DNA of 64,000 nt from Patescibacteria group bacterium (GTDB taxonomy: Bacteria; Patescibacteriota; Microgenomatia; UBA8517): positions 10,752 through 74,751 of the forward strand of contig JAHJHG010000006.1 of NCBI GenBank assembly GCA_018823885.1. Reading direction: 5' to 3'. Shown here in pieces: positions 1 through 36,538 of the stretch. Below the pieces are notes generated by a model. The model was not told where the DNA came from. It saw nothing but the letters and a program-made list of their open reading frames with translations, and made no database searches. Every line of letters begins with the position of its first letter. The stretch's first letter is position 1. A program made the position numbers and the translations under genes.

Positions 1-112
1 CTCCCTGCATATTTCGTTTCCAAATATATAGTAGGTCAAATAAGTTGAGGCTACCTGAAAAGATATAGTTGACGCGCCCATAATAAATCTGCGATAAATA
101 ATAAAGGGAAAA

Positions 113-934
113 ATGACGCCTGAGAATCCTTACTTTGGAGCAACTAATAAAGAATTAGATACAAAACGCCTTGAGATTCAATCAAGTGGTTTCAATCCTT
201 ACACTGAGAAATTTTTAGAAGATTTAGGTCTATCAAAAGAAACTGCTTTAGATCTGGCAACTGGAACAGGGGCCGTCCTAACAATACTGGCGAAATATGC
301 AAATCGGATCACAGCGCTTGACTCTGACAAAGATCAGCTAGCTGAGGCTCAAAAAGTTATCGAGCTATTCAATCTTGGGAGCAAAGTAGAACTTAGGCAA
401 GGAAACGCTTTAGAACTAGACTTGCCTGACAATACATTCAGCATAGTTCACGCAAGACTCCTTCTTACAAATCTTCCAACAAAAACGCACTCGCAAGTGG
501 TAAACGAGTCTATCAGGGTTCTCAAACCCGGTGGGGTGTTAGTTCTGGAAGAACTCGGAGTTGACCGGGGATGGCACGCCAAACCTCCTTCTTCACATTT
601 TGAAACTCTTGTTAATGCCGTCATTGAAGCACGCAACAGAACGGAGATCTCTAACCAAACAGGGCCAGAATTGGAAGATTTGGTCACAATCTCTGGTCTA
701 AAAACGATAGCTAAAAATTCATACTCTATCGAAAGTCGTGCCAAGGATCCTTTTACACAGCTTAATGTCATGTTTATGACCCTCTATACTCCTCTTCTCG
801 TAAGAACCGGCGCTTTGAGTAAAGAGGAAAGTGAAGTTCATTTGGAAGGCCTCAAAAATGATATTAAGGATAATCCTGATATGAAAGTTTGGGCACCGCA
901 AATGTTTCAGGTTGCGGCGAAAAAACTCTCCTAA
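113..934 (+). CDS. Class I SAM-dependent methyltransferase
   Basis: The ORF track lists a 273-aa ORF. It carries the glycine-rich SAM-binding motif I (LDLATGTGAVLTILAKYA) followed by an acidic residue (ALDSD), which is the typical Rossmann-fold methyltransferase arrangement. Confidence 0.65.
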   Translation: MTPENPYFGATNKELDTKRLEIQSSGFNPYTEKFLEDLGLSKETALDLATGTGAVLTILAKYANRITALDSDKDQLAEAQKVIELFNLGSKVELRQGNALELDLPDNTFSIVHARLLLTNLPTKTHSQVVNESIRVLKPGGVLVLEELGVDRGWHAKPPSSHFETLVNAVIEARNRTEISNQTGPELEDLVTISGLKTIAKNSYSIESRAKDPFTQLNVMFMTLYTPLLVRTGALSKEESEVHLEGLKNDIKDNPDMKVWAPQMFQVAAKKLS

Positions 935-977
935 AAGGTTTGCCTTTTCCTCCATTTTCATTCATCATTAAAATGAA

Positions 978-3152: not shown

Positions 3153-3170
3153 TAGTTATATAAATTAGAT

Positions 3171-3584
3171 ATGCCGAGAATACTAATTATCGAAGACGAC
3201 CCCTTAATGACCCGTTTGTATCAAAAGGTTTTTAGGTTTGAAAAATACGATGTTGATGTTGCTTCGAATGGCAAGTTGGGTTTAGAAAAAGTCAAATTGG
3301 AGAAACCAACCCTCATCCTTCTTGACATCATGATGCCAGAAATGAATGGTCTGGAGGTCTTGACAAAGTTAAAGGCTGATGAAGAAACCAAGAAAATACC
3401 AGTTATCGTTTTAACAAATCTGGCCGGAACTCAAGATGCAGAAACCGCTATGGCTAAGGGAGCCGTTCGATATATTGTTAAAAGCGAGCATGATCCTAAA
3501 GAAGTAGTTAAAATCGTTAAAGAAATATTGGCAGGATATACGAGAGATAAGATACCAGAAGTAAGCAAAGAAAAAAAAGAGTAA
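3171..3584 (+). CDS. Single-domain response regulator (CheY-like receiver)
   Basis: The 137-aa ORF has an acidic pocket (IIEDDP), the phospho-acceptor Asp context LILLDIMMPEMNGLEV, and a conserved Lys region (VKS). It starts 19 nt after the kinase gene. Confidence 0.8.
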   Translation: MPRILIIEDDPLMTRLYQKVFRFEKYDVDVASNGKLGLEKVKLEKPTLILLDIMMPEMNGLEVLTKLKADEETKKIPVIVLTNLAGTQDAETAMAKGAVRYIVKSEHDPKEVVKIVKEILAGYTRDKIPEVSKEKKE

Positions 3585-3604
3585 ATTCTAAATTATCTAT
3601 CTAG

Positions 3605-5848: not shown

Positions 5849-5933
5849 TACTTTATTCTACTATGGAAAATGTTACCGACAAAGAACCCTTGAACAAAAC
5901 CACACAACCCCGCTATTATTAAAATATACTTAT

Positions 5934-6389
5934 ATGGTTGGTGTTGTTACATTTTGGGAAACTTTTATCGGAGTAGATAATCCAATCTACATTGGAGATA
6001 TATGGGCTAACACCATAAGACCACTTGGTGGTACCCATTTATTTTATGTTGACCAGCAAGGAATAGGAACACCGAGCATAGATGCTTCTATCGTTTCTAA
6101 AACCTATTCTACTTTCCAAGAAGTATTGGATGACAACCCCGATGCAACCTATGTGTTTCTTGAGGCTGAAAGGAGTATTCCAAAAGGTACCGATTTTACT
6201 TACTTAAAAGACTTTGTTCATCCCAAAGAAGACGTCATTTATGTTTTCGGCAAAGATAGTTCTGATGTGTTCACAGAGAACCTGCCACTTGAAGGAAATC
6301 ATGTTGTATCAATTACCACAAATGATAATCTTGTGCTCTGGTCATTAATAACAGTCGGTATCGTTCTGTATGATAGAAAGGTTAAATAA
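5934..6389 (+). CDS. Hypothetical protein, first gene of the beta-helix cluster; the start is uncertain
   Basis: The ORF runs 5670..6389, but its first 180 nt overlap the convergent 747-aa gene. The first in-frame ATG outside that overlap is at 5934 (151 aa). Its stop, TAA, overlaps the ATG of the next gene (taATGg), which suggests translational coupling. Confidence 0.35.
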   Translation: MVGVVTFWETFIGVDNPIYIGDIWANTIRPLGGTHLFYVDQQGIGTPSIDASIVSKTYSTFQEVLDDNPDATYVFLEAERSIPKGTDFTYLKDFVHPKEDVIYVFGKDSSDVFTENLPLEGNHVVSITTNDNLVLWSLITVGIVLYDRKVK

Positions 6390-8500
6390 TGGCATTTTCA
6401 ATTACATCAGATATGACCACTATTGATACTTGTTCTGATACCACAAACTGGTCAGGAACTATTACTCCTACGCAAGACACTGAGGTGTTTATTGAGGGCG
6501 CCGCCTCAGTCGGAATGGTAAAAGTATCACAGGGGAAATTTATTGAAAAATTTGATTATTATACTGAAAAAGCAAGCAATTATTATAATGCTTCTACTAA
6601 TCCTACTCATTTATATTTTTGGGTAAATGTCTCCAACGGCGGTGGACTTTATCCGCTGTCTAGTGGAACAGAATCTACAGAAGGCGGAGTTAGACTATAT
6701 ATGGAAGACAGCGCTGGTGCTTATGTTGAGTGGTACGTTGCAGGTTCAGACACTTACTCTGGTGGTTGGAGATGTTTCGTAGCCTACACCGATGCCGCGC
6801 CCAATAACTCATCTGGTTCAATTAACAAATCACAAATTCGATATTTTGGTGTAACTCTAAATATGCAAGCTAAAACCACAGCTAACGTGAGAAATGCTTG
6901 GATAGATTTTATCAGATATGGTTCAGGTCTCATTTGTAGTGGAACCGACACGGGCCAAATGACTTGGGATGATATTTATGCCGGTGATCTTGCGGGTCCA
7001 CATGGGGTTATTAGAAAAGAAGGTGGAATTTTCTTCGTACAAGGATCGGTCACCATAGGCGACAATATTGGAACAAGTGCAACAGATTTCAGTGATGCTA
7101 ACCAAGTTCTCGTATTTGAAGACGCAAACGTTTCAAGTACTTTATATAACATTACAATCGTCGGCAATGCCACAGGAGATACTGATTTTCAAATGGGAAC
7201 CAAATCGGGTACGGCAGGAATTTCAGGATGCATTATCAGGTCGGCTGGTATAAATAAATATGATTTCACTTGTACCGATACTGCAGTCGAAGAGCTGTTG
7301 TTATACGGGTGTACTTTTTATGATGCGGACGTTATTTCTCTCCCGGCCTATTCCGCCTCGGCTCCACTTAGAGAAGTATTAAACTGCAACTTTGAGGCGT
7401 GTAATCAGGTTGATCCTGATACTTGTACAGTAACTAATTGTAATTTCATTAACGCTGATGACAGAGGGTGTTTGATAGATACTTCATCTCACCATATTAC
7501 CGATTCAAATTTTATTGCCTGTCCAGACGCAGTACATATTAATACTGCTGATACTTATACTTTTTCTGGTCTTATCTTCACCAACAACACCTATGACGTA
7601 GAAAACTCATCTGCCGGTGTCGTAAATATTAACGTATCCGGAACTGGAGCGGCTTCCTCAGCTGAAAATACTGGTGGGGGCTCTACAAACTTTATTTCGT
7701 CCGTTGATGTAGATGCCAAAGTACTAAACGATGCAGGCTCAAATATAGAAAATGCGCAAGTGTATATTCAAAAATCCGATACTGGAAAACAATGGAATTA
7801 TGTTTCTCATTCTGGAAATGCATTAAACGACACTGACTTTGTGGTTACTGGAGCAATTGACGATGATTTGCCCTCATCAGGGTGGATACACGTTTGGGAC
7901 AAATCAGATAATTCCAAGCAGAATTATAGATATACCGGATGGGCAACGGCAACAGATACAACTTTTACACTAAAAACTAATGTAACAGGAAGTGCAACAA
8001 GTGAAGATGGAACAAGCCCAGAAATAAAATTAATTTCTACATCGTCTGATTTTATAGCAATGAAAACGGCTGGGACTATTGAAGAAGGAGACTCAATTTA
8101 TAATTCAACTGATTTAAGCTGGGCTATTGTAGACGAAATAGTAGATGCAGACAATGTAACTACAACTCCACTACAAGGTGGTTCGGACAATAAATGGCAA
8201 GCCAGTGATGGATTCAGTCTACATAAATTAGTAAAGGCTTATACTCTCACCGATGATAAAATAGACATTCCCCTATTCAACGGACAGACTGATTCAAACG
8301 GAGAAATATCAACCTCATATAACTATGGAGAAATTGGAAATCCTCCTGGTCAGTCTGGTTATACTTCCCTGCCCATTTGGATCAGAATTAGATCAAACCA
8401 AGGTACACCTAAATATATTCCATACAACACGAGCGGAACCATAACAGGAAGTGGATACGATTTAACGGCGGTTATCACAGAAGACGATGTAGCAACATAA
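6389..8500 (+). CDS. Right-handed parallel beta-helix repeat protein (pectate-lyase / tailspike-like fold)
   Basis: The 703-aa ORF has repeated short beta-helix rungs rich in N, C, T, I and V (NITIVGNATGD; CIIRSAGIN; NCNFEACNQVD; VTNCNFINADDRGCLIDTSSHHITDSNFIACPDAVHIN). There is no N-terminal signal peptide. Confidence 0.6.
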   Translation: MAFSITSDMTTIDTCSDTTNWSGTITPTQDTEVFIEGAASVGMVKVSQGKFIEKFDYYTEKASNYYNASTNPTHLYFWVNVSNGGGLYPLSSGTESTEGGVRLYMEDSAGAYVEWYVAGSDTYSGGWRCFVAYTDAAPNNSSGSINKSQIRYFGVTLNMQAKTTANVRNAWIDFIRYGSGLICSGTDTGQMTWDDIYAGDLAGPHGVIRKEGGIFFVQGSVTIGDNIGTSATDFSDANQVLVFEDANVSSTLYNITIVGNATGDTDFQMGTKSGTAGISGCIIRSAGINKYDFTCTDTAVEELLLYGCTFYDADVISLPAYSASAPLREVLNCNFEACNQVDPDTCTVTNCNFINADDRGCLIDTSSHHITDSNFIACPDAVHINTADTYTFSGLIFTNNTYDVENSSAGVVNINVSGTGAASSAENTGGGSTNFISSVDVDAKVLNDAGSNIENAQVYIQKSDTGKQWNYVSHSGNALNDTDFVVTGAIDDDLPSSGWIHVWDKSDNSKQNYRYTGWATATDTTFTLKTNVTGSATSEDGTSPEIKLISTSSDFIAMKTAGTIEEGDSIYNSTDLSWAIVDEIVDADNVTTTPLQGGSDNKWQASDGFSLHKLVKAYTLTDDKIDIPLFNGQTDSNGEISTSYNYGEIGNPPGQSGYTSLPIWIRIRSNQGTPKYIPYNTSGTITGSGYDLTAVITEDDVAT

Positions 8501-8567
8501 AAATGGGTCTTGATTATATTAGGAGAAATGTCTCATTATAGTTTATAGTTAATTACAGGACAAAAAT

Positions 8568-8909
8568 ATGAAAATAAAACTAATTAGTTATCCCTATAAG
8601 GATTATGAAGTTGGAGAGATTGTTGATCTTGGTGAAGACAAAAATAGGTCGATGGTGTCTTTGCAAAGAGCTGTTTGGGTTGAAGAAGAAGAGAAAAAGA
8701 AAAGGACACCAAAAAAGACCGTTACAAAAACAGCCACGCAAACACAAGACGATGTAATTGAAGAAGAAGAAAAACCAGCAAAAGAGACCGAAGAAGTTGA
8801 AGAAACAAAAAAGCCGACTCGAGGACCAGACGGGAAATTTGTAAGCAAAGAGGAAACAGAAAATACAGAAAAACCTAAAAAAAAAGGCTTTCTGAGTAGG
8901 CTGAGGTAA
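8568..8909 (+). CDS. Lys/Glu-rich low-complexity hypothetical protein
   Basis: The 113-aa ORF is highly charged low-complexity sequence (EEEEKKKRTPKK...EEEEKPAKETEE). It sits in the same orientation as the flanking large genes. Confidence 0.4.
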   Translation: MKIKLISYPYKDYEVGEIVDLGEDKNRSMVSLQRAVWVEEEEKKKRTPKKTVTKTATQTQDDVIEEEEKPAKETEEVEETKKPTRGPDGKFVSKEETENTEKPKKKGFLSRLR

Positions 8910-8921
8910 AACAAGAGTAGG

Positions 8922-9122
8922 ATGGAAATTTTTAATTTACACTCTAATAATAAAAAGAAAATTAAAGGCTTGAAAGTTACGTCACACAAAGAATATGATA
9001 AGAACGGGAAGAAGCGTACCAATCGGTACGTAGAGTTTACGGTTGTCGGAAAAAATCGACAATGGAAAGATTTTATGCCGGTTGAAGACTTTAAAAAATT
9101 GAATCCCGAGATTAATATCTAA
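8922..9122 (+). CDS. Small basic hypothetical protein
   Basis: This 66-aa ORF fills the gap between the KE-rich gene and the 982-aa gene on the same strand. Confidence 0.3.
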   Translation: MEIFNLHSNNKKKIKGLKVTSHKEYDKNGKKRTNRYVEFTVVGKNRQWKDFMPVEDFKKLNPEINI

Positions 9123-9127
9123 CTGCC

Positions 9128-12076
9128 ATGGCAATACAAAACGATTTTACAGTCTACCCTACATCAAAAGTAATTAGGCATACTTCTGGAACAACCGTTT
9201 ACTCAGCGGTTGCTTTCTACTCCTGGTTAATGAACACTTTTGACGAGCCAGGATACTTGACCTATGAAACCCCGATAAGGTTCAACACACCAACTTCGTT
9301 CACGATGATTAATGGCTGGTTTCTAGACGATGGGGATGGCAATCCCGCTGACACGGAAGATGGCCACATTCTTAAATATATAACTGGTGGTGGTATTGAT
9401 ACCTCCGGTTATGCCACAGTTTCTGATCCTATCTATATGGCAGACCTGGCTACTTCTACAGTCGATTTTGTCTACACAGATAAAGACCTACAAGTAACGT
9501 CTGGAGCAGCCGTGGGCCCACTACTGGCCTATAAAAATGATTACCCCACTTCCGCCCGCATTCGTATTTGGGTCAGAGATACTGAATCACACGGAGCACT
9601 CGCCACATCAACTGTCACAGAGGTCACCACTGCGGGAGGTTCGGGAACGGGTACTACTGATGGCACCACAGCATCTGTAAGCGGTGATGAGATTTACCAC
9701 AATCTGTTTACCATTGCGTCCTTTCCAACTGACGTTTATCCCCAGGTATATGTCTATCAACGACACCCTGTAACAACACAAAGTTATAACACCAGAGTCC
9801 GCATAGCGGAGTGGTCTGGTTTTACCAACTGGGACAGAGGTTCGGATGGAATTGATGTCCTCATTCCAGTCAAGCTAGGTGGTACAGCTGTTGACGGTGG
9901 CAACCTTACAGCTTTCGTCCGCGAAACTGGCGACACCTACACTTTTGTTAAGTCTACACTGACATCATCAGGTAGAACCCCTATCGCTACTGAAACTTCC
10001 GCTGACGAGGTAAATATTACTGAAGGTGAACACTATTTGCTTTACGACGGTTCTGATACTGGCTCATTTTCCGCTGATGATGTCATTACCGACAGCGATG
10101 TTTCAACGGGTGTCCCCCCCTCCTGGTACGCCGAGGTAGTTGAGGTAGATGAATTTACTGCCACTGCCACCGGTTTGCTCACAATTCGGTCTTTGCACGG
10201 AACCATTTCAGACAATGACGATATTTATGTCACCGCTTATTCTGCTGGTGCACCGGTGAGCGTACTTGAGGGTACAGTTAATGGTACTGTGGGCGACACA
10301 CTTGTGACACACACTGGAGCTGGTACTGAACCGGTTATAGGAGACATTGATTTACCTTTTGAAGGGGGTACTAGTGGAGCACACCGAGTCTTGAGAGGGT
10401 ATGATAATGCTGAAAACAAGCTTGTTATGCAGGTATATCATACATTTGGCACTCTCGACTCTCAGGTTTATACCGGATCGGGCAGAGATGCTCTTTACAT
10501 AGATTTTTCATTAACTGAAGTAGTAGACGCTCCAGCCAGTGGTACTGGTCTCATGAGTGTAACCACATCAGCAGTTAGCACTACTTTAATCTCTGGATTT
10601 TCTGATGTCACAGTGGCTCATATGAACGGTACTGTAACAGTCAGTGGTATTGCCAACGGCCCACTTATTCTTGGAGATAGATTCACGTACAACACAGGGG
10701 CCCAATCTGGGATCTTAATTTATGCCGATAGCCTAACTGCCCCCACATCTCTCATGCTCGGGAATATTGATCCTGACAATGAACCAGATGCGTCAGACCA
10801 ATTTGCTTTCCAGCTCGCCGGATCTGGTGCATGTACTGTCGACTGTGACTCTGTTTTGACTGATAATAATTCACAAAATTTTGAATTTACTCTTCAATCG
10901 ACTGGGGCGCTTTACACTATTTTTATTGAAGGAGGATCCATTTACAACGCTGGTCGAAGTCTTGCCGATATCTATGCATATTTGCAATACTACGTTCGAG
11001 ACGGCCAGAATATATCCGAGAGAACTATCTATACCAGCGATGGCACTGCCATTACAAAATTAGCGGCCGAAGAATATATCAAGGCAGTCGATGTAACTGC
11101 TTATTCTGCAACCAAACCAGCACCGTTCGGAACCTTAGCTGGAACCACTTTCTTCGGTGCCCAAGGTGTGTGGCTGCAGGGCATGACAAGCACTGACAAC
11201 AACAACATAAAATTCATTGATGCTGGTACAAGCCCCACTTGGGTAGGAACTCTCCGAGAGCCTGATCCATCTATAAACTTAACGATAAGTAACACTAGGG
11301 TTGGCGATAGAATAGCAGTCTACCTAGAAAGTGGCTCTACTACTTTGCCTGACAAAGCTCAATACACGAGCCATGCCACACTTAATGCTCAAAGTGACTC
11401 AACTTTTGATAGAAATGCCTCTGATGGTGCATTCCCCATCGACACACCAACTTTTGGAACTTTTATCGCAGTTGCCACTGATGAAAGCGAGGAGCACAGA
11501 TATAGATATACTTCTTATAACGCAACTGGTGGTGGTGGTTCCGATGGACAATTAGTGTTACCGACTGAAAGGACGGGAACGGCGACAGCTGGTTCTACTG
11601 GACAAACTTTGGTAGCTTCGGCTGCAACGTTTGTTAGCTGGGTCGACCAGAATGGATTAACAACCCAAATTGGAGATATTATCAGAAGAACCAATAATGA
11701 GGGTGGGTGGGCGTATATCACCAGCATCGATTCAGAAACACAAGTTACGACAACACTATTTAACGCTGGCATCACTCAGGGTTGGGATGATACTGCAACA
11801 GCTGATACATTTGAGATGCTCTCTTTAGTGCAATTATATGATGACAGCGATACTTTCTTTATCCCTTATATGGACTTTAGAGAATCCGCTGGAACGGATG
11901 GTTCCCCGGGTTCAGAAACAGTAACAGTATTGTATTATGCAAATCGAGAAGTAGTAATTGAGGTTCGCAACGTCGAAGCTTCCACTCAGATTATTCCTTT
12001 CAAAACCACCGGAACTATTTCTTCAACAGGTTTGACTCAGTCTGTAATTAGAAACGAAGATACTGTTTACACTTAA
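9128..12076 (+). CDS. Large Thr/Gly/Ser/Asp-rich hypothetical structural protein (fibre/adhesin-like), no signal peptide
   Basis: The 982-aa ORF has a composition typical of beta-sandwich fibre or adhesin proteins. It shares its strand with the beta-helix genes, and no catalytic motifs were recognised. Confidence 0.55.
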   Translation: MAIQNDFTVYPTSKVIRHTSGTTVYSAVAFYSWLMNTFDEPGYLTYETPIRFNTPTSFTMINGWFLDDGDGNPADTEDGHILKYITGGGIDTSGYATVSDPIYMADLATSTVDFVYTDKDLQVTSGAAVGPLLAYKNDYPTSARIRIWVRDTESHGALATSTVTEVTTAGGSGTGTTDGTTASVSGDEIYHNLFTIASFPTDVYPQVYVYQRHPVTTQSYNTRVRIAEWSGFTNWDRGSDGIDVLIPVKLGGTAVDGGNLTAFVRETGDTYTFVKSTLTSSGRTPIATETSADEVNITEGEHYLLYDGSDTGSFSADDVITDSDVSTGVPPSWYAEVVEVDEFTATATGLLTIRSLHGTISDNDDIYVTAYSAGAPVSVLEGTVNGTVGDTLVTHTGAGTEPVIGDIDLPFEGGTSGAHRVLRGYDNAENKLVMQVYHTFGTLDSQVYTGSGRDALYIDFSLTEVVDAPASGTGLMSVTTSAVSTTLISGFSDVTVAHMNGTVTVSGIANGPLILGDRFTYNTGAQSGILIYADSLTAPTSLMLGNIDPDNEPDASDQFAFQLAGSGACTVDCDSVLTDNNSQNFEFTLQSTGALYTIFIEGGSIYNAGRSLADIYAYLQYYVRDGQNISERTIYTSDGTAITKLAAEEYIKAVDVTAYSATKPAPFGTLAGTTFFGAQGVWLQGMTSTDNNNIKFIDAGTSPTWVGTLREPDPSINLTISNTRVGDRIAVYLESGSTTLPDKAQYTSHATLNAQSDSTFDRNASDGAFPIDTPTFGTFIAVATDESEEHRYRYTSYNATGGGGSDGQLVLPTERTGTATAGSTGQTLVASAATFVSWVDQNGLTTQIGDIIRRTNNEGGWAYITSIDSETQVTTTLFNAGITQGWDDTATADTFEMLSLVQLYDDSDTFFIPYMDFRESAGTDGSPGSETVTVLYYANREVVIEVRNVEASTQIIPFKTTGTISSTGLTQSVIRNEDTVYT

Positions 12077-12082
12077 ACCCAA

Positions 12083-12565
12083 TTAGTTTGATTTTGAAGG
12101 AGATCTAAGCTTCTCTAAGATTATTCTCGTTTCAAGTGCTTTTTTAGTCTCACCTGTAAAATAATATACTTGGCCAAGATTATAGTATGCTTCCCGGTAC
12201 TTCGGATATATTTTAATCGCTCTTTTGTAAAAAAATTCAGCCTCCTTAAGTCGATCTGTACTCATGTAAACATTTCCCAAGTTATTATAGACTACTCCAC
12301 TATTCGGCTTTATTTTTAAAGCTTTGACATAAATATTTTCTGCTTCCTTAAAAAGCCCCGCACATTTATAGGCCACTCCAAGATTGCAGTAAGCCTTAAA
12401 GTAATCAGGCATAATTTTAATAGCCTGTTTATAACTGGCAATGGCTTTGGGATATTCCCTCTTTTTCAAAAAATCGTTGCCAGCCTGATAGTACACTTTT
12501 GCCTGCTGCTGCTTCATTTTGTAAATTGTACCATTTAAGATGACGAACACTTTGACTTCGAGCAA
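12083..12565 (-). CDS. Tetratricopeptide (TPR) repeat protein
   Basis: The 160-aa ORF contains about four 34-aa repeats with the W/LG/Y and A/F/AP signature (AIASYKQAIKIMPDYFKAYCNLGVAY...). Confidence 0.7.
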   Translation of the reverse strand: MLEVKVFVILNGTIYKMKQQQAKVYYQAGNDFLKKREYPKAIASYKQAIKIMPDYFKAYCNLGVAYKCAGLFKEAENIYVKALKIKPNSGVVYNNLGNVYMSTDRLKEAEFFYKRAIKIYPKYREAYYNLGQVYYFTGETKKALETRIILEKLRSPSKSN

Positions 12566-12657
12566 TCTGCTGCTACAGGCGATTATTATTAGTTTAAGCT
12601 CCTAATGCCGTTAACAACTAGATTTGAAGGAATTCTTCCGACATAATAGTATGAGTT

Positions 12658-13977
12658 ATGGCAATAAGAGTAAATCCTTACGTTAGCCCTAGAATTATAG
12701 AGGTTCAAGCACCCCTTACAGAAATCTCTATTCAAGACTTAACTGACCAAATAAAAGACTGGGAAGACGAACCAGCCGATCTTGCCTTTCCTATTTTGAT
12801 TAGAACGTACGGAAAACAACCTCTTGGTGGCGGATCTTTCGTGGGAATAACAGCTGTATTACAAAACGCAAAAATTTCTTTTGAAGCTAGGGACGGATTA
12901 GATACTCCACCCGAGGTTTTATGTACTATCTCCGGAGGAAATTTAGTTGCCGTTGACGATGTTGGTGCCTCAATGAACCCTATTCACCCAACTGCTTATA
13001 CTCAAGTTGTTATTGCCCAGTCAACCTCTCCTTCTATTATTACTCCACCCGAAGACCTTAACATGCTTTACCTTATTGAATCTCTAAGAGGTACTGGTAA
13101 ATCTTTGGGGAGTATTTTCTACTGGGATCCGGAAGGTGGAAGCGATACAAACGATGGGAGCCAACCTAGTGAAGCTGTTCAAACCTTTGCCGCAGCACAG
13201 GCATTGACGACAGCCGGAGCGGGAGATATTATTTTTGCTCTCTCAACCCACTCAAGTGGAATCACAACTACCTCTGAAAAACTAAGCATTACTACCGCGG
13301 GCCTGAAAGTAAGAGGCCCTGGCTACAGACTTCAATTGATTCCATCGGCCACCGGTTCCCCTACCGTCAATATCTCAGCCAACTCTGCTGAATTTGAGGG
13401 TTTTTATATCGAAACGAAGAGTGGAGGAACAGACAACGGAATCACAGCGACTGGAAATAATGTGGTGATTAAAGACTGTTGGGTAAATTCTGCCACTGGT
13501 AATGGAATTGATATTTCCTCGACCAGTAGAACTGAAATTAATACTTGCGTGATTGAAGAGAGTGTTGGTTACGGAATCAATGTGGGGGCAACAACAAGTC
13601 TCTCAACAATTCGAAAATGTATCATCTCTGGCAACTCCGAAGGAGTATATATTGCGGGGGCCAGCATTACGGACAACATATTGGAAAACAATATAATTTA
13701 CAACAACACGACCAGCGGAATTGAAATTGGCAACGGAGTGGTCAGAACCGGGATTCGATTGCATCATACTTTTGCCGCCAATAACCCCAATATCACTGAC
13801 GATGGAACAGGGACTTATCAAGACACATCAGGGACAATCGAGCAAGGGGATATCGACAACATTGTTAGTGGGGTTTGGGATGAAGTAATTTCAGCTACAG
13901 CTCATGCGGGTGCCGGAAGTGCCGGAAAGACATTGAGGGACGCGAAAACGAAAGCCACCCTTGCTTCCCTTAAGTAA
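12658..13977 (+). CDS. Right-handed parallel beta-helix repeat protein (second tailspike-like paralog)
   Basis: The 439-aa ORF has consecutive beta-helix rungs (NGITATGNNVVIKDCWVNSATGNGIDISSTSRTEINTCVIEESVGYGINVGATTS...CIISGNSEGVYIAGASITDNILENNIIYNNTTSGIEIGNG). There is no signal peptide. Confidence 0.65.
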   Translation: MAIRVNPYVSPRIIEVQAPLTEISIQDLTDQIKDWEDEPADLAFPILIRTYGKQPLGGGSFVGITAVLQNAKISFEARDGLDTPPEVLCTISGGNLVAVDDVGASMNPIHPTAYTQVVIAQSTSPSIITPPEDLNMLYLIESLRGTGKSLGSIFYWDPEGGSDTNDGSQPSEAVQTFAAAQALTTAGAGDIIFALSTHSSGITTTSEKLSITTAGLKVRGPGYRLQLIPSATGSPTVNISANSAEFEGFYIETKSGGTDNGITATGNNVVIKDCWVNSATGNGIDISSTSRTEINTCVIEESVGYGINVGATTSLSTIRKCIISGNSEGVYIAGASITDNILENNIIYNNTTSGIEIGNGVVRTGIRLHHTFAANNPNITDDGTGTYQDTSGTIEQGDIDNIVSGVWDEVISATAHAGAGSAGKTLRDAKTKATLASLK

Positions 13978-14512
13978 TATGAGCTATCTCTAACTCGTAG
14001 GCCATTTTTTCTCCTATAAATTTAATCTTTGCGAGCTCTACCTCATTCAACTCTTCATTGGCTCCACCAATTCCAATTCTTACTTTCCAGAAATCTTTGC
14101 TGTTTAATTTCTTCTCCATTTTCAAAATTGCTTCCGGGGCAGAACCTAAATTTTTACTTATATCAAACTGGCCAAAAGTAAGGTTTTCGTCAGGATAAAT
14201 AATATAAAAGTCTTCGGGAATCACTCTGTAAAACGCGTAGAGACCAAAGGCAACATCATCAAACTTGTCTGTAGGGGTCCTAGGCTTAACCACCATCGTC
14301 AAAGGATTCAGATTGGTAGTCATGAGCATATATTTTGATCTCATCGCCCAGCCGCTTACCATGGCGTTAGGATATAGCTTTCTCACTTTTTCCACGGCAT
14401 AATCAATAATCATATAACCCACATTGCTTCGGGCTTTTGCATACCGTATTCCGGGGTTCCCGTAAGCAATAATCAGTCTTACTTTTTCCTCTATATTCTT
14501 TTCCTCTGTCAT
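13970..14512 (-). CDS. Divergent peptidyl-tRNA hydrolase (Pth)-like paralog with the catalytic His position substituted
   Basis: The 180-aa ORF aligns by eye to the canonical Pth in this same window: N-terminus LIIAYGNPGIRYAKARSNVGYMIIDY against [26 protein letters not shown], and C-terminal motif DFWKVRIGIGG against DFWRVRIGVDN. The His of the conserved R-H-N motif reads Ser here (ARSN). Confidence 0.6.
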   Translation of the reverse strand: MTEEKNIEEKVRLIIAYGNPGIRYAKARSNVGYMIIDYAVEKVRKLYPNAMVSGWAMRSKYMLMTTNLNPLTMVVKPRTPTDKFDDVAFGLYAFYRVIPEDFYIIYPDENLTFGQFDISKNLGSAPEAILKMEKKLNSKDFWKVRIGIGGANEELNEVELAKIKFIGEKMAYELEIAHIT

Positions 14513-14599
14513 CTCTTTTAAGTCCCCATTCTTTCAAAATATGATAGCATTTTTTCCCCTCTTGCTTTTGGAAAATATTTCTTTTACCATCTTACTAGA

Positions 14600-14791
14600 A
14601 TGCCAGCCTTCTTAAAAAACATCGGAGCAGTCGAGCTCATCATCATTGCCCTCATTCTTGTTCTTCTTTTCGGAGGTAAAAAGTTTAAGGAATTAGCTCG
14701 TGGACTTGGAGAGTCAAAACACGAAGCGAAAAAACTTAAAGAAGAAATTATAGGCAAGGGCAAGAAGGATTCTGAAGAAGACGCTTCTTGA
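14600..14791 (+). CDS. tatA: Twin-arginine translocase subunit TatA/E family (copy 1, subtype a)
   Basis: The 63-aa product has a single N-terminal TM helix (GAVELIIIALILVLLFGGKKF) followed by an amphipathic basic helix. This is the classic TatA architecture. Confidence 0.8.
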   Translation: MPAFLKNIGAVELIIIALILVLLFGGKKFKELARGLGESKHEAKKLKEEIIGKGKKDSEEDAS

Positions 14792-14841
14792 CTAGTTGCC
14801 ACAAACAAGTAAGAATTAATAAGTAAGGGAGGTGGTAGATA

Positions 14842-14985
14842 GTGATCAAGAATCTAGGAACAACTGAACTAATAATTATCGCTTTAATCTTAATACTTCT
14901 ATTTGGTGGCAAAAAGATACCTGAGTTTATAAAGGGTGTCGGAGAGGCTGTTAAAGAATTCCGAAAGGCGTCTAAAGAAGACTAA
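14842..14985 (+). CDS. tatA: TatA family protein (copy 2, subtype b), GTG start
   Basis: The 47-aa product reads VIKNLGTTELIIIALILILLFGGKKIPEFIKGVGEAVKEFRKASKED. An AAGGGAGG RBS lies 10 nt upstream. An in-frame stop lies immediately upstream of the GTG, so no ATG start is possible. The product is too short for the ORF track. Confidence 0.65.
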   Translation: MIKNLGTTELIIIALILILLFGGKKIPEFIKGVGEAVKEFRKASKED

Positions 14986-14991
14986 TTTTCT

Positions 14992-15198
14992 ATGCTAAAA
15001 AACTTAGGAACGGTTGAATTTGTGGTTATCGGAGTAATCGCAGTTCTTTTGTTTGGAAGCAAAAGAATAACAGATGTGGCCAAAGGCCTGGGCAAGTCAA
15101 CAAAGGAATTCAAAAAAGCACAAAGTGAATACGAAAAAACAGTTAACAAAGATGTCTCCGAAGAAGAGTCGGAAGACAAAGATAAGGAGGTGACATAG
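14992..15198 (+). CDS. tatA: TatA family protein (copy 3, subtype a)
   Basis: The 68-aa product begins MLKNLGTVEFVVIGVIAVLLFGSKRITDVAKGLGKSTKEFKK. Confidence 0.8.
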   Translation: MLKNLGTVEFVVIGVIAVLLFGSKRITDVAKGLGKSTKEFKKAQSEYEKTVNKDVSEEESEDKDKEVT

Positions 15199-15351
15199 AT
15201 GTTTGGAAAACTTGGAGCATTAGAATTAATTATTATCGCTTTTGTCTTAATCCTACTTTTCGGTGGCAAAAAGATCCCTGAATTAGTTCGCGGAATCGGT
15301 GAGGCCGTTCGTGAATTTAAAAAGGGTGCCAAAGAAGAAAAAAAAGATTAA
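15199..15351 (+). CDS. tatA: TatA family protein (copy 4, subtype b)
   Basis: The 50-aa product reads MFGKLGALELIIIAFVLILLFGGKKIPELVRGIGEAVREFKKGAKEEKKD. A GGAGGTG RBS sits 6 nt upstream. The sequence was found by manual translation. Confidence 0.75.
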   Translation: MFGKLGALELIIIAFVLILLFGGKKIPELVRGIGEAVREFKKGAKEEKKD

Positions 15352-15412
15352 ATTACTCCTCTTGCACATATCCCCCTGTTTAACTTATCATTAGACAAAT
15401 TAGCTTTTATCT

Positions 15413-15577
15413 ATGTTAAATAACGTTGGACCGGCTGAAATGATAATCATTGGTATTGTGGCTCTTTTCCTTTTCGGAAACAAGAAACTGTCCGAATTGG
15501 CTCGAGGCCTCGGGGAGTCAACTAAAGAATTTAAAAAGATTAAAAAAGACATTGGAAAAGAAATTGATACAGACTAA
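15413..15577 (+). CDS. tatA: TatA family protein (copy 5, subtype a)
   Basis: The 54-aa product reads MLNNVGPAEMIIIGIVALFLFGNKKLSELARGLGESTKEFKKIKKDIGKEIDTD. It was found by manual translation. Confidence 0.75.
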   Translation: MLNNVGPAEMIIIGIVALFLFGNKKLSELARGLGESTKEFKKIKKDIGKEIDTD

Positions 15578-15609
15578 TAAATATTTAAGACCGGAAGGGG
15601 GTGTTATAA

Positions 15610-15762
15610 ATGCCTAGTCGATTTGGAGCATTAGAAATTGCCATTATCGCTTTGATTCTTATATTGCTTTTTGGTGGTAAAAAGATCCCTGAATTAATAA
15701 AGGGGGTCGGAAAAGGAATCCGAGAGTATCGCAAAGCGTCAAAAGAAGAGAAAAAGGAATAA
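15610..15762 (+). CDS. tatA: TatA family protein (copy 6, subtype b)
   Basis: The 50-aa product reads MPSRFGALEIAIIALILILLFGGKKIPELIKGVGKGIREYRKASKEEKKE. A GGAAGGGGG RBS lies upstream, and the stop abuts the tatC ATG. Confidence 0.75.
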   Translation: MPSRFGALEIAIIALILILLFGGKKIPELIKGVGKGIREYRKASKEEKKE

Positions 15763-16506
15763 ATGGACGATATATATAATCGCTTCTTCCCGTACCTTAT
15801 GGAGGTTCGAAAAAGGCTGTTTTTTATAGCCTCTATTTTTCTTATTTCATCCGCCCTGGGTTTCATCTATTACGAGAAGATAATCACCACCAGCCTGGGT
15901 ATTTTTAATCTTGAGGGAATAAATATTGTTTTTACCTCTCCTTTTCAATTTTTAGAACTTTCAATTAATTCCGGCCTCCTGGTCGGTTTGATTGCTGTTT
16001 TCCCTCTGATAATAGTTCAGGTCCTGTCATTCTTAAAACCCGCCTTAAAGAAAAGCGAATTTAAGCTGGTTATTTCTCTCTTGCCCTTAAGTATCTTTCT
16101 TTTTATCTTCGGATTTACCTACGGCATCTTTATCATGAGATATGTCTTGGTTATCTTCTATGAGAAGTCCTTAGCGCTTTCCATTGGCAACTTCTTAGAT
16201 GTTAGCAAGTTCCTCTCTCAGATTCTGCTTACCTCGGCTCTAATGGGCCTAGCCTTCCAATTTCCTGTTATCTTGACAGTCCTAATGCGCCTAAGAGTAA
16301 TAACGTATAGCGCCCTTTCAAAACAAAGAATGATCGCTTACTCCTCCTCAATTATCTTTGCCGCCTTTTTGCCACCTACCGACCTGCTCTCTCTTGCCCT
16401 TTTAACAGTCCCTCTTGTAATACTTTTCGAAACTACGCTATTATTAAACAAGGTGGTATTCAAAGCCCCCCTTAAACCAAAAAAGGAGGTGAAACGTAAT
16501 GTTTAA
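15763..16506 (+). CDS. tatC: Twin-arginine translocase subunit TatC
   Basis: The 247-aa product has 6 predicted TM helices. It shows TatC-like conserved stretches (FLKPAL, PPTDLLS), and its ATG sits 1 nt after the stop of the sixth tatA. Confidence 0.85.
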   Translation: MDDIYNRFFPYLMEVRKRLFFIASIFLISSALGFIYYEKIITTSLGIFNLEGINIVFTSPFQFLELSINSGLLVGLIAVFPLIIVQVLSFLKPALKKSEFKLVISLLPLSIFLFIFGFTYGIFIMRYVLVIFYEKSLALSIGNFLDVSKFLSQILLTSALMGLAFQFPVILTVLMRLRVITYSALSKQRMIAYSSSIIFAAFLPPTDLLSLALLTVPLVILFETTLLLNKVVFKAPLKPKKEVKRNV

Positions 16507-16657
16507 AACAATTGGATCAACAGAACTACTAATAATTGCCATAATATTACTTATTCTTTTTGGAGGAAGAAAGCTTCCAGAGCTTGGAAAAGGAATGGGA
16601 GAATCTGTAAAGGAATTTAGAAAATCTTTAAAGAAAGAACCTAAAACCAAAAAGTAA
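16499..16657 (+). CDS. tatA: TatA family protein (copy 7)
   Basis: The 52-aa product reads MFKTIGSTELLIIAIILLILFGGRKLPELGKGMGESVKEFRKSLKKEPKTKK. It overlaps the tatC stop by 8 nt, and an AAAGGAGGTG RBS lies inside the tatC 3' end. Confidence 0.75.
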   Translation: MFKTIGSTELLIIAIILLILFGGRKLPELGKGMGESVKEFRKSLKKEPKTKK

Positions 16658-16662
16658 TTCCT

Positions 16663-17046
16663 TTGCTAACCCCTCTACTCGCCTTAATAGCACCATTCAT
16701 TGTTTGGCCTATTGAGTTAATATTGCCATATCCTCACATCATTGAGGAGTTGGCAAAAGCGGTTCTTGTTTTTACCCTACTGGATCTTCCGGATCGTTTA
16801 ACGAAAATCAAACTTACGATCTTAATCGGAGTACTTTTTGCATTCTCCGAATCAGTCCTCTATCTTTTCAATATTCAAATGGTCGGCATTATGCGGACAT
16901 ATTTTGTCAGACTTCTTGTCACCATTCCACTTCATGTCATCACAACATTAATCATTTTATTACCGGCCCTGAAAAATAAGAAATTAATTATTGTCGGAGT
17001 TTTATTTGCTTCCCTAATCCACTACCTCTTCAATTTATACATCTAA
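16663..17046 (+). CDS. Small integral membrane protein (about 4 TM helices)
   Basis: The 127-aa ORF is hydrophobic throughout and lies directly downstream of the tat array. Confidence 0.4.
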   Translation: MLTPLLALIAPFIVWPIELILPYPHIIEELAKAVLVFTLLDLPDRLTKIKLTILIGVLFAFSESVLYLFNIQMVGIMRTYFVRLLVTIPLHVITTLIILLPALKNKKLIIVGVLFASLIHYLFNLYI

Positions 17047-17107
17047 TAACAGTAAACAAGAGATACATTGATAAATAGTTGGCTATACTATTATATATAT
17101 TGATATA

Positions 17108-17608
17108 TTATAGTTGCCAAGATAAGAAGGCAGTGCTCAAATCTTCATCTGAAAAATCCTGAATGATATTTGCTTTCTTCTTTTTATAAAAATTTAGAGC
17201 GGCCGGACTTCTATCACTAACATATGCATAGATTTCTCTAATCCCCTTATCTTTTGTAAAAGCTAATACTTTTTCAAATAATTTATTGCTGTACCCCTCT
17301 CCTCTAAGTTCTGGTTTGACATACATGTACATCAACTCAAACGGATCTGGGTCCATCTGAAAATCATTCTTAACCCATCCTTCTTCTTTAAAGGTCTGTC
17401 CCCACACTTTCATTTTGGCTGGTGAGTGACCAATAACCACAAAGCCAATTCTTTCTCCTTTTTTGTTTTCTTGAAAAATAACATATACCTTGGAGTTTCT
17501 TTCCTCGTCGCTTAAATCAAATTCCTTATTTATTCTTTTAACAAAATGTGAATAGGCTTTATCATCGCCAACAATATCAGCGATCTCCCGTATCTCGTCT
17601 CTGCTCAT
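17108..17608 (-). CDS. GNAT family N-acetyltransferase
   Basis: The 166-aa ORF has an acetyl-CoA-binding motif A-like segment (RGEGYSNKLFEKVLAFTKDKG) and GNAT-like topology. Confidence 0.65.
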   Translation of the reverse strand: MSRDEIREIADIVGDDKAYSHFVKRINKEFDLSDEERNSKVYVIFQENKKGERIGFVVIGHSPAKMKVWGQTFKEEGWVKNDFQMDPDPFELMYMYVKPELRGEGYSNKLFEKVLAFTKDKGIREIYAYVSDRSPAALNFYKKKKANIIQDFSDEDLSTAFLSWQL

Positions 17609-17665
17609 AAAACTATTATGAAACAGGAAAGAATAATTAGAAAGTATTAATTGAAGTCTTACTTA

Positions 17666-20443
17666 TTAATACTCAAGAGAAGAATACTCTTTTGAAACCC
17701 AGCCTAATGTTCCATCATTCAGCTCTATCTGGTACCAATCAGCTTTTTCGTCTATGAGAGCAAAAGATTCACCCGGTTCAACTTTGGCAATCTCTATTCC
17801 GCCGGGGGCCTTTCTCACTCTTAACCAGCCTGTAGGAGTATCTTCAATCATCACCGTGCCTCCAATGGGGTCAGTTAGGCTTTCAAACTCTTCCTCTCCT
17901 AACGAATCTTCTTCAAAAGGTACCCCTTCTACAACAAATTCTAAATAAACCCAGCCTTCTGTGTAATCGCCCTCTTTCTCGTTCACAAAGGCAATGTTCG
18001 CCCAATCTCCTTCCTCCCCTATCCTAACCACTTCTTGAGTTACCTTAAGGCGCATGATCACCGCAGAAGTTAATGACGGCTCTTCTCTGATGTTGACCGA
18101 AGAACCGACCGGTACTTCTACCATCACAATATCCTCTCCCCCAGTCGCATCTTCTTCAAGCTCTTCTTCCTCAAGGTCAATTACTTCAGCTTCCTCCTGC
18201 TCACCCAAAACAAACTCCGATTCGTCTATGGTTTCGGCCACTTGCTGAGAAACAATTTTGGCGGTGATCACCTTGCTGGTAATAAAAGCGGTCAGGGCGG
18301 CAATCCCGGCACCAAACAGAATGAATAAAACAGCCAGTCTAATGGCAACCTGCTTTCTAATACGTCTTCTGGCTTCACCATTTGTCTTCTTTGTCTTTGT
18401 TTTCATCTTCATGGGTTGTGTCTTCTTCTTATTGCTCTTGGCCATCTCCTTGTCTCTAAGAGTCTTCATGTAGACTGCCAGGAAAATAAATCCGCCGGCA
18501 ACGATAACAATCATTCCCCAAACGGCCAGTGTTTGGGTACTGCCGACAAAACCAAAGAGGGTGCCGATAGAACCTGCTTCAGTGACCAATTCTTGAAGTT
18601 TGTCCATCTTGGTGTTGACAGCATCAAGTTCGATTTCGGCCTCACGGTAAGCTCTAATCTTTTGTTCGGGAGTAATAGCCGTCTTCTGAAGTTCAATAAT
18701 TTTGTCTAAAGAAACATCAATATCGCTTTTAAGAGTCACTCCTTGAGCGAAGTAGGATGTCTTCTCAAGTGGTCTGGAAAGTTCTTCTGCTTGTTTGCGT
18801 AAACTTTCTACCTGTTCTTCCGTAATTACCCAAATATCGTTTACCTGAATTGATACCGTTTTTGTTTGTCCGGCTCCTAATGTAAACTCACCTTCTACGT
18901 AATATTGATCTTGCTCTGCATCATATTTAACTGTTAAATCATCATCTGTTGAAATAATATCTTCCTCTCTCACTTCGGGAGGCAAATAGTATTTTAACGG
19001 AACAGTTTGGCTAATTAAGCTGGAAGGGTTTGTTATTAATGACTTAAAAACAATGCTTCCCAATTCAAGCCAGGTGCTGGCAATGGTTGAGCCCGCCTTT
19101 TTGGCCAAAAATGTTTCGTTTGCTTGAATTAATCCCTTTAAGCTCAATAATTTGTTCTTGAGGATCTTTTCGTCCGAAGTATCTTTGTAAGTCGAAGCGC
19201 CTAAAACTTTTTCTATCCTCGGCAATCTGTTGATGGCAATTATCTTGTTGTATAAGGTATTGATTTTAGAAACTCGATCATTGGCTCTTGTTGAATTCCA
19301 TTTTGCCAATACATTATCAATATCACCTTTTCGAGTTTCAAAAATATCAGCTAAGTCTCTAACCTCTTTTATCTTCCCGAACAATGTCCTTTGGTTTGAA
19401 GAATCTGCAGCATCCCCAACCAATGTCTCAAGTCTATCGATATTACCTACCAGGCCTTTTATTTCATTGTAGGCAAAATTGGTTTTACCATAAGAACCAA
19501 GCCTGTATTGAGTGGCTGAAAGAACATTGCCAATGGCGATTGCCTGATTATAAACATCCTCGGTTGCTTTCCACCCCCAAGCTTCCTTTAGCCAATTTAT
19601 TTGTCCAAAAATGGTGTCTTTGTTGTCTGAATCCCCCTCATCTCCCAACATTGCCGAAAGCTCCATGACATTCGAAAGAAGCTCTCTTTCGCTTAGTTTT
19701 GACCACTTCGTAACCAATAAGCTTGCCTTACTTCTCAAATATTGATTGTTTACATAGAGTGTGTTGGCAACTGATTTTGTTTGCTCAAGCTTCTCCCCCA
19801 AATCAGGGGTTTCTTCTTCTTCAATGAAATTTTGAATGATTGGTTCGTTAACCAGCCGCTCAAGCAAAAGCCTGTTTTCATTAATTGTTGCTTCCATACT
19901 GGAAATATCTATTGCATCTTCGTCCCCTGCATTAAGACTGGTCAAGGATCGTGAGGCGTTTGACCATATATTAGAAATCAAATCACCAAAATTGGAAAGA
20001 GTTCTGCCTGAATATCCCCACACAGCCGATGAAATATCTCCGGTGGAGGGAGTAGTTGACGACGCTTTAACTTCGTAACTCTTGTCTAAACACAAATAAT
20101 CACCACTGGCCGTACAACAAACTTGAGCTCGATAAAGACCGGTAGTGGTTGGGGCTGTAAAAGTATGATAATACCAACCATCTGTAGCCTTGGACATTAC
20201 CTCTCCATTAAGATGAAGAGATCCATCGGGATAACGGCTAGTAATAGTACAATCAGCCGTAGTAATAGGAACATAAGAGTCATCATAAAGAAACTCTCCT
20301 ACTGTGCAACTACTGCTTACTGTGCAATCTTGAGGACTTCCTGCTGAGGCCAAAGTATTCCGGGGGAAAACAAGGGCCCCAGCAAGAGCAGAAACAGCAA
20401 TTGCCACAAACACTTGTTTTTGAACAGTTTGGGCAGTTACCAT
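17666..20443 (-). CDS. Large secreted/membrane-anchored protein: signal peptide, long alpha-helical ectodomain, 2 TM helices with a polybasic loop, acidic linker, two C-terminal bacterial SH3 (SH3b) domains
   Basis: The 925-aa ORF begins with a signal peptide (MVTAQTVQKQVFVAIAVSALAGALVFPRNTLASA). It has TM segments flanking KSNKKKTQPMKMKTKTKKTNGEARRRIRK, and an EEEELEED acidic stretch. The two C-terminal segments of about 60 aa carry GW...Y/W signatures typical of SH3_3. Confidence 0.55.
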   Translation of the reverse strand: MVTAQTVQKQVFVAIAVSALAGALVFPRNTLASAGSPQDCTVSSSCTVGEFLYDDSYVPITTADCTITSRYPDGSLHLNGEVMSKATDGWYYHTFTAPTTTGLYRAQVCCTASGDYLCLDKSYEVKASSTTPSTGDISSAVWGYSGRTLSNFGDLISNIWSNASRSLTSLNAGDEDAIDISSMEATINENRLLLERLVNEPIIQNFIEEEETPDLGEKLEQTKSVANTLYVNNQYLRSKASLLVTKWSKLSERELLSNVMELSAMLGDEGDSDNKDTIFGQINWLKEAWGWKATEDVYNQAIAIGNVLSATQYRLGSYGKTNFAYNEIKGLVGNIDRLETLVGDAADSSNQRTLFGKIKEVRDLADIFETRKGDIDNVLAKWNSTRANDRVSKINTLYNKIIAINRLPRIEKVLGASTYKDTSDEKILKNKLLSLKGLIQANETFLAKKAGSTIASTWLELGSIVFKSLITNPSSLISQTVPLKYYLPPEVREEDIISTDDDLTVKYDAEQDQYYVEGEFTLGAGQTKTVSIQVNDIWVITEEQVESLRKQAEELSRPLEKTSYFAQGVTLKSDIDVSLDKIIELQKTAITPEQKIRAYREAEIELDAVNTKMDKLQELVTEAGSIGTLFGFVGSTQTLAVWGMIVIVAGGFIFLAVYMKTLRDKEMAKSNKKKTQPMKMKTKTKKTNGEARRRIRKQVAIRLAVLFILFGAGIAALTAFITSKVITAKIVSQQVAETIDESEFVLGEQEEAEVIDLEEEELEEDATGGEDIVMVEVPVGSSVNIREEPSLTSAVIMRLKVTQEVVRIGEEGDWANIAFVNEKEGDYTEGWVYLEFVVEGVPFEEDSLGEEEFESLTDPIGGTVMIEDTPTGWLRVRKAPGGIEIAKVEPGESFALIDEKADWYQIELNDGTLGWVSKEYSSLEY

Positions 20444-33209: not shown

Positions 33210-33289
33210 ATTTTTATGGTTAATAGATTTTCTCTATTAACCACATATGTTAATGTTTTTTGTTCTCTGAAAACTGAAGGGAATGGGTC

Positions 33290-36511
<3,222 letters not shown>

Positions 36512-36538
36512 TTTCCCTTCAGATGTCAAAGAACAAAG

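Follow-up and report, generated by a model that had tools for sequence, protein, structure and literature searches.

Peptidyl-tRNA hydrolase of the Pth1 type is an essential, nearly universal bacterial enzyme and an antibiotic target. To our knowledge, non-enzymatic derivatives of Pth come only from plant organelles, in the form of CRS2. Here we analyzed a Pth-like protein of 180 amino acids encoded in a 64,000-nucleotide stretch of a Patescibacteria group bacterium (assembly GCA_018823885.1, contig JAHJHG010000006.1, positions 10,752 to 74,751 of the forward strand), hereafter called the window, which also holds a canonical pth gene. Residues are numbered as in E. coli Pth unless the Pth-like residue is named, and their roles are those given in the structure paper on the E. 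coli Pth:tRNA complex (PMC3488237). In that enzyme, His20 is the catalytic base and is polarized by Asp93, Asn68 and Asn114 form the oxyanion hole, and Asn10 takes part in peptide recognition and in discrimination between peptidyl- and aminoacyl-tRNA (PMC3488237). The acceptor stem is bound by Lys103, Lys105, and Arg133, the pocket for A76 consists of Leu95, Gly111, and Val149, and Lys142 lies on the loop-helix alpha4 lid; the cleft also holds peptide, as seen in the 2PTH crystal, where it is occupied by a C-terminal tripeptide (PMC3488237). CRS2, a plant chloroplast splicing factor (PDB ID: 1RYB, 1RYN, and 1RYM), has the Pth1 fold in a non-hydrolase role and is a protein-binding subunit that works with CAF1/CAF2 (PMC10054620).

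Both its fold and its Pfam profile place the 180-residue protein in the Pth1 superfamily. Its sole Pfam match was PF01195 (Pept_tRNA_hydro), with 61.3 bits against a gathering cutoff of 27 and an E-value of 1.4e-16. The AlphaFold model, built on 19 family sequences, had a predicted local distance difference test score (pLDDT) of 88.3 and a predicted template modeling score (pTM) of 0.86. In a Foldseek comparison with the PDB, the best match of the model was the Pth1 structure 2z2j (E-value 9.5e-13, template modeling (TM) score 0.75), and the strong matches listed were all Pth1 or CRS2 chains with TM scores of 0.71–0.76. The alpha/beta fold was thus shared with bacterial Pth1, including E. coli Pth (PDB ID: 2PTH and 3VJR; TM 0.71–0.76), and with CRS2 (TM 0.74–0.76). 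In the primary sequence, the protein has in common with bacterial Pth1 the GxPG turn (GNPG), Asn21, the KP.T strand, the FW[KR]VR[IV]G strand carrying the Arg133 equivalent (FWKVRIGIG), and the C-terminal helix. An identical protein was encoded on 13 independently assembled contigs, which rules out an artefact of assembly.

The canonical pth of the same genome served as the reference copy. Its product scored 167.5 bits with PF01195 and 173.8 bits with TIGR00447, the pth equivalog profile, whereas the Pth-like protein reached only 63.1 bits with TIGR00447 against a cutoff of 100. The two proteins showed 28% identity over 145 residues by BLASTP (E-value 9e-22). The first-pass annotation of this DNA had described a canonical pth together with a divergent paralog of the same fold, and these results agreed with both statements: the canonical copy lies above the equivalog cutoff with its catalytic residues intact, and the paralog shares the Pth fold. 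The canonical protein has LHKG in place of GHNG, with a Lys at the oxyanion-hole position Asn114. Among 227 canonical relatives, mostly from Patescibacteria, this column held N in 121, K in 54, and H in 33 proteins. Because the column varies among canonical Patescibacteria Pths, the Lys in the window copy is ordinary, and Asn114 is therefore not strictly required in this lineage.

To the Pth-like protein the first-pass annotation had ascribed a substitution of the catalytic His (ARSN) and a YPDENL segment in place of HDDLD. Five alignments, obtained by BLASTP, by MAFFT with E. coli Pth, by MAFFT of 260 sequences, and from the family profile against PDB chains, agreed in placing Ser29 of the Pth-like protein opposite His20 and Pro107 opposite Asp93; the motif ARSN stood opposite NRHN, and YPDENL opposite HDDLDI, of the canonical protein. 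The alignment with E. coli Pth further assigned Asn to Asn10, which is thus kept, and Glu127 to Asn114. Since its only His is residue 178 of 180 and Cys is absent, the protein offers nothing that a register shift could bring into the place of the catalytic base. The position of His178 is also not conserved, with Asn or Leu in several relatives, and a register shift returning the catalytic His was ruled out by this lone residue together with the five concordant alignments. The loss was common to the whole family. Asn10, His20, Asn68, and Asp93 were each present in all 227 canonical relatives from the same searches, and neither His20 nor Asp93 was found in any of the 33 paralog sequences (32 distinct proteins). 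The His20 column of the paralogs held S, E, G, D, N, K, L, Q, or F, and the Asp93 column P, A, G, or Y; at the latter site, YPD was invariant in 19 aligned close relatives, and one further member of type 1, the subtype to which the window protein belongs, had Ala. At the Asn68 site, the window protein has Asp82 and the family N, D, K, S, or A. At the Asn114 site, it has Glu127, and E was found in 21 of the 22 type-1 members with D in the remaining one. The Asn10 site, at which the window protein retained Asn, was occupied by K in 12, N in nine, and I in one of these 22 proteins.

Residues for substrate binding were also altered. The Lys103 site is Asp in the Pth-like protein (D in 13, K in three, E in two, and others in the family), and the Lys105 site is Ser (S in 15, D in three, G in two, and E in two). 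The Gly111, Lys142, and Val149 columns were gaps in all type-1 members, and Leu95 of the A76 pocket and Met67 are absent as well. Only the Arg133 equivalent of the basic patch for the acceptor stem was retained (R in 20 and K in two of the type-1 proteins). In the former cleft, the protein carries the acidic residues Glu81, Asp82, Asp108, and Glu127, together with an added Arg78. The median isoelectric point (pI) was 9.0 for canonical proteins, 8.2 for type-1 paralogs, and 6.2 for type-2 paralogs. The protein therefore differs from bacterial Pth1 in the absence of His20, Asp93, Asn68, Asn114, Met67, Lys103, the Leu95/Gly111/Val149 pocket, and the alpha4 lid, in a clade-specific insertion behind helix 1 and an invariant Arg78, in its score below the equivalog cutoff, and in its coexistence with a canonical pth in one genome. 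The comparison of these sites extended beyond the two motifs first noted, and it supported the earlier proposal of a catalytically altered or inactive pseudo-enzyme: judged by its sequence, the protein has very probably lost Pth activity.

The current NCBI and JGI labels for the family are 'aminoacyl-tRNA hydrolase' or 'PTH1 family peptidyl-tRNA hydrolase'. The former, on these substitutions, is probably wrong, and because the protein fails the defining functional features of Pth, it should not carry the name peptidyl-tRNA hydrolase. CRS2, the other non-hydrolase with this fold, differs in being eukaryotic and organellar and in acting on introns, and its recruitment was independent and concerned another subfamily. 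CRS2 is also said, after Jenkins and Barkan in 2001, to still have the Pth catalytic residues, whereas the Pth-like clade has lost them. No gene for a CRM-domain partner was noticed among the neighbors of the Pth-like genes.

The paralog is conserved in its lineage. A first search yielded 21 proteins at 55–100% identity to the Pth-like protein, forming one cluster at 50% identity. A profile search of 1.84 billion representatives added weaker relatives (P0022–P0029), which had G, S, L, or Q at the His20 site. In a second profile search with the widened alignment, full-length members of the clade scored 181 bits or more, and the canonical proteins that came next no more than 119 bits; a 117-residue fragment of the family scored 155 bits. 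The latter search brought in proteins named Candidatus Woesebacteria by NCBI. The resulting 33 paralog sequences represented 32 distinct proteins, the window protein being identical to P0001, and these form a clade of Woesebacteria-like Patescibacteria lacking both His20 and Asp93. In neighbor-joining trees, a simple method whose result is indicative only, the paralogs were monophyletic on a long stem in 50 of 50 bootstraps. The gene clearly arose from a Patescibacteria-type pth in an ancestor of the Woesebacteria-like clade. Members of the family are rare. Scanning with its motifs located 11 loci among JGI metagenomes, and the GTDB species representatives gave no match.

The clade had conserved features of its own. 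An insertion of the pattern N-x-[FY]-P-[RN] follows helix 1 in the paralogs, and Trp55, Pro70, and Arg78, which lie beside the former cleft, were invariant. The position of Arg78 was R in 32 of 32 paralogs versus Gln in 156 of 227 canonical proteins. Asn30, Lys76, and Asp108 near the former active site were invariant too, as was Asn21, and the Arg133 equivalent was R or K in 30 of the 32 proteins. A second subtype (P0171, P0024, P0025, P0028, P0029, and others) had Leu or Phe at the His20 site and Tyr at the Asp93 site, and bore an acidic insertion of 15–50 residues. The ratio of nonsynonymous to synonymous substitution rates (dN/dS) of the Pth-like gene, calculated by the Nei-Gojobori method for unsaturated pairs, was 0.04–0.10, which indicated purifying selection on the protein. 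A decaying duplicate on its way to a pseudogene, for which the lost catalytic residues and the fast divergence between sublineages (28% identity where TatC has 61%) might speak, is hardly credible, since the reading frame was intact in more than 30 distinct sequences, the dN/dS values contradict decay, and the clade has its own invariant residues and a confidently predicted fold.

In the window, the Pth-like gene lies on the reverse strand between a forward gene for a right-handed beta-helix protein and a forward array of twin-arginine translocation (Tat) genes, in which six tatA genes are followed by tatC, a seventh tatA, and the gene of a PrsW-like protein (Table 1). The divergent orientation from the tatA array, remarked on in the first-pass annotation, was confirmed, and this layout is specific to the lineage; other sublineages have the paralog and the Tat genes in the same direction. 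Reading by eye, we noted an extended -10-like element (TGcTATCAT) and an AAGAG ribosome-binding site upstream of the ATG of the Pth-like gene, and a consensus sigma-70 promoter was not found in the 87-nt spacer. On the other side, the Pth-like and beta-helix genes converge, and their stop codons both fall within the 9-nt string CTTAAGTAA (window 13970-13977). The overlap leaves no space for a terminator between the two genes; the corresponding convergent overlaps in related loci measured 8–23 nt. The number of tatA copies differed between loci L019, L020, and L021, all of which encode an identical Pth-like protein, and in a related Tat array an open reading frame (ORF) for a GIY-YIG endonuclease was inserted (L023, 5860-6123).

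Table 1. Positions in the window of the Pth-like gene, its neighbors, and the canonical pth
Feature	Coordinates	Strand	Remarks
Thr/Gly/Ser-rich proteins, 703, 113, and 982 aa	6389..12076	+	no signal peptide, no Pfam match; same module, upstream
TPR protein, 160 aa	12083..12565	-	gene in opposite orientation, flanked by the 982-aa and beta-helix genes; not at this place in L001 and L006
Right-handed beta-helix protein, 439 aa	12658..13977	+	without signal peptide; 3' end overlaps Pth-like gene by 8 nt
Pth-like paralog (pseudo-Pth, putative), 180 aa	13970..14512	-	Pth1 fold; ATG start; lid/alpha4 segment deleted
Spacer, presumed divergent promoter region, 87 nt	14513..14599	.	between Pth-like gene and first tatA
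tatA, six copies	14600-14791, 14842-14985, 14992-15198, 15199-15351, 15413-15577, 15610-15762	+	Pfam labels of syntenic genes
tatC	15763-16506	+	Tat array 14600..16657
tatA, seventh copy	16499-16657	+	Tat array 14600..16657
PrsW-like membrane protein	16663..17046	+	closes Tat operon; syntenic in all related loci
Canonical pth, 178 aa	55750..56286	-	reference copy of same genome; Asn10, His20, Asn68, Asp93; Lys at Asn114 position

The genes around the Pth-like gene belong to a module that spans 6389-20443 of the window, 1-12360 of locus L027, and 350-9430 of locus L029, and that occurs in Woesebacteria-like, Beckwithbacteria, and WWE3 lineages. Its parts are large Thr/Gly/Ser-rich proteins without signal peptide or Pfam match, small proteins of 60–113 residues, a beta-helix protein of 427–445 residues, and, immediately after these, tatC with multiple tatA genes, often joined by a PrsW-like protein and an SH3-domain protein of 755–980 residues. 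The beta-helix protein had at least 451 homologs, and the 120 listed were 52–87% identical. Its model (pLDDT 81.5) matched only generic right-handed beta-helices, such as pectate lyases, epimerases, and phage tailspikes or depolymerases, with E-values of 1e-5 to 1e-8 and TM scores below 0.45. The 703-, 113-, and 982-residue proteins of the window showed 41–48% identity with their counterparts in L001 (9929-15405), where TatC showed 89%, and between the same genomes the TatC, GNAT, and beta-helix proteins were 84–93% identical. The three proteins evolve very fast and may be located at the surface or interact with a host; over their C-terminal thirds, those of 703 and 982 residues are related to each other. 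PDB sequence searches with the 439- and 982-residue proteins gave nothing useful, and a crude scan revealed no twin-arginine signal in any window ORF of at least 80 residues.

An origin of this neighborhood from a prophage or tail fiber was rejected, as its only PHROGs matches were of unknown function (two for the 113-residue protein and one for the Pth-like protein) or at the repeat level (the TPR protein), the folds of the beta-helix protein were generic, and a tblastn search of 50,697 phage records with it returned no match. PHROGs gave no match for the 703-residue, 982-residue, and beta-helix proteins. The matches of the Pth-like protein in records labeled as phage were canonical-type pth, approximately 25% identical. 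A defense system was likewise dismissed: PADLOC had no match for the Pth-like, beta-helix, 982-, 703-, and 113-residue proteins, and for the TPR protein only generic TPR matches. In the literature searched, coverage of which was incomplete, we found no description of a Pth paralog in bacteria of the candidate phyla radiation or of a Tat/beta-helix module.

Other regions of the window also drew attention. The order of the rRNA genes on the reverse strand (33091-44374) is unusual, with the 23S gene (33287-36508) lying 6.4 kb downstream of the 16S gene (42912-44374), tRNA-Ile, tRNA-Ala, and further sequence between the two, and the 5S gene at 33091-33207. Within the 23S gene, a group I intron occupies 34307-34536. 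A predicted surface protein of 747 residues (3605-5848, reverse strand) carries fibronectin-III and Ig-like domains and, at its C-terminus, an AhpC/redoxin domain; its gene adjoins a pair of genes for a histidine kinase and a response regulator (978-3584).

Comparison of related loci suggested that the position of the Pth-like gene is more than chance. The beta-helix gene, with a product of 427–445 residues, adjoined the Pth-like gene in every locus where that side was visible, and the Pth-like gene usually stood between the beta-helix gene and the tatA/tatC array. The arrangement of the window was shared by relatives at 64% identity or above, and the same slot was filled by subtype-2 proteins, which are only 27–28% identical to the window protein. 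The neighbors of these subtype-2 loci were about as similar to those of the window as were the neighbors of the 64%-identical relative (TatC 61% vs 58%, GNAT 57% vs 60%), which indicated that the slot is conserved while its occupant evolves fast. In L031/L032 and L026, the genes form an in-line operon of beta-helix, Pth-like gene after a 6-nt gap, tatA, tatA, tatC, tatA, and PrsW, relative to which the window lineage has the Pth-like gene inverted in place. In L003, L014, and L017, the Tat flank was replaced and a TPR gene overlaps or abuts the start of the Pth-like gene, with the convergent beta-helix gene kept; beyond the TPR gene follow different genes (beta-lactamase-like, ASCH-like, and ribosomal protein L1). 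The TPR protein of the window is homologous to those at the three loci with 51–56% identity. In Beckwithbacteria and WWE3, tatC and tatA genes come immediately after the beta-helix gene, and a Pth-like gene is lacking. The module is therefore older than the Pth-like gene, which was inserted into it in a particular lineage.

From these results, we lean toward the interpretation that the protein is a neofunctionalized, non-catalytic member of the Pth1 fold that was recruited as a lineage-specific accessory of the beta-helix/Tat module. Peptidyl-tRNA hydrolysis would have been lost and left to the canonical pth of the genome, and the Pth-like protein would work by binding a partner or ligand at the remodeled cleft. 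The acidic former cleft makes the 3' end of a nucleic acid less likely as the ligand, and a protein or peptide partner would be favored because the Pth cleft naturally holds peptide and is now acidic; such a partner, possibly a protein of the module or a peptide, may be likelier than tRNA. The precedent for a Pth fold acting through protein partners is CRS2 with CAF1/CAF2 (PMC10054620). What the protein does within the module is put forward tentatively: it may be a cytoplasmic adaptor or a chaperone-like subunit of the module into which its gene is inserted. The TorD, DmsD, and NapD Tat chaperones, which are also small and cytoplasmic and have genes in or beside Tat-related operons, offer an analogy of role; they differ in having a fold unrelated to that of the Pth-like protein and no sequence link to it. 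It is a still bolder and rather doubtful idea that the protein serves as a dedicated adaptor or chaperone of an undescribed Patescibacteria-specific export module, made up of large signal-less fiber-like proteins, the beta-helix protein, and a multi-TatA Tat translocon, with the peptide cleft of a one-time translation-rescue enzyme re-used to hold a protein client for the Tat machinery or on it.

Several points weigh against a recruited accessory of the module. The inactivity of the protein was deduced from its sequence. Most lineages with the module have no Pth-like gene, so that it is not needed for the core function of the module. The absence of a twin-arginine signal in the window leaves no obvious client for a classical Tat-chaperone role, and we discarded a chaperone with such a client. 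Conservation of the beta-helix protein in its C-terminal tail was equally strong without the Pth-like gene, which weakened the candidate interaction of the Pth-like protein with this tail. The place of the Pth-like gene beside the beta-helix and Tat genes could reflect synteny inherited within one lineage, as the flanking genes are syntenic too, and Arg133, Asn21, and the moderately basic pI of some members would leave room for RNA binding.

The better of these alternatives takes the protein as a functional pseudo-enzyme with its partner elsewhere in the cell, and its adjacency to the beta-helix and Tat genes as inherited synteny without functional meaning. The whole block of SH3 protein, GNAT, PrsW, Tat, and beta-helix genes is indeed syntenic across these genomes, the module of Beckwithbacteria and WWE3 does without the paralog, and in the window its gene is on the strand opposite to both neighbors. 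However, adjacency to the beta-helix gene has outlasted inversion of the Pth-like gene in place, the exchange of the Tat flank for TPR and unrelated genes, and divergence of the protein to 27–28% identity, and the 6-nt in-line spacing in L031 suggests co-transcription. We therefore regard mere synteny as an improbable account, although one to be taken seriously.

A non-catalytic RNA or tRNA binder that has nothing to do with its neighbors, either sequestering or sensing peptidyl- or aminoacyl-tRNA or acting as a CRS2-like cofactor of RNA processing, appears unlikely. Such a protein would be consistent with retention of the Pth fold, with the Arg133 equivalent and Asn21 as conserved in the clade, with CRS2 among the top structural matches of the model, and with the intron in the 23S rRNA gene of this genome. 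It is hard to reconcile with the replacement of Lys103 by Asp and Lys105 by Ser, with the deletion of the A76 pocket and the alpha4/Lys142 segment, with the acidic residues gained in the cleft, and with the fall of the median pI from the canonical proteins to both subtypes. CRS2 itself, moreover, was reported to have no RNA-binding ability and to act via CAF proteins (PMC10054620). Less likely again, and by a good deal, is a hydrolase or esterase with another catalytic set (e.g., Arg78, Asp108, Asn30, and Tyr106) acting on peptidyl-tRNA or another ester. The invariant polar residues Asn30, Lys76, Arg78, and Asp108 around the former active site would suit such an enzyme, but there is no His, Cys, or conserved Ser to act as base or nucleophile, the position of the catalytic base varies freely among nine residues, both oxyanion-hole positions are lost, the adenosine pocket and the lid are deleted, and the score with TIGR00447 is below the cutoff.

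With its whole active site apparently lost and the protein nevertheless kept under selection, the Pth-like clade would be a clear example of how a pseudo-enzyme evolves in the reduced genomes of Patescibacteria. It would be an independent bacterial case, like CRS2 in kind as a recruited Pth fold, with an active site more thoroughly dismantled. The finding would also correct a systematic misannotation of these proteins. By its fixed position, the gene of the putative pseudo-Pth also points to a conserved, uncharacterized module across several candidate phyla, which may deserve a study of its own.

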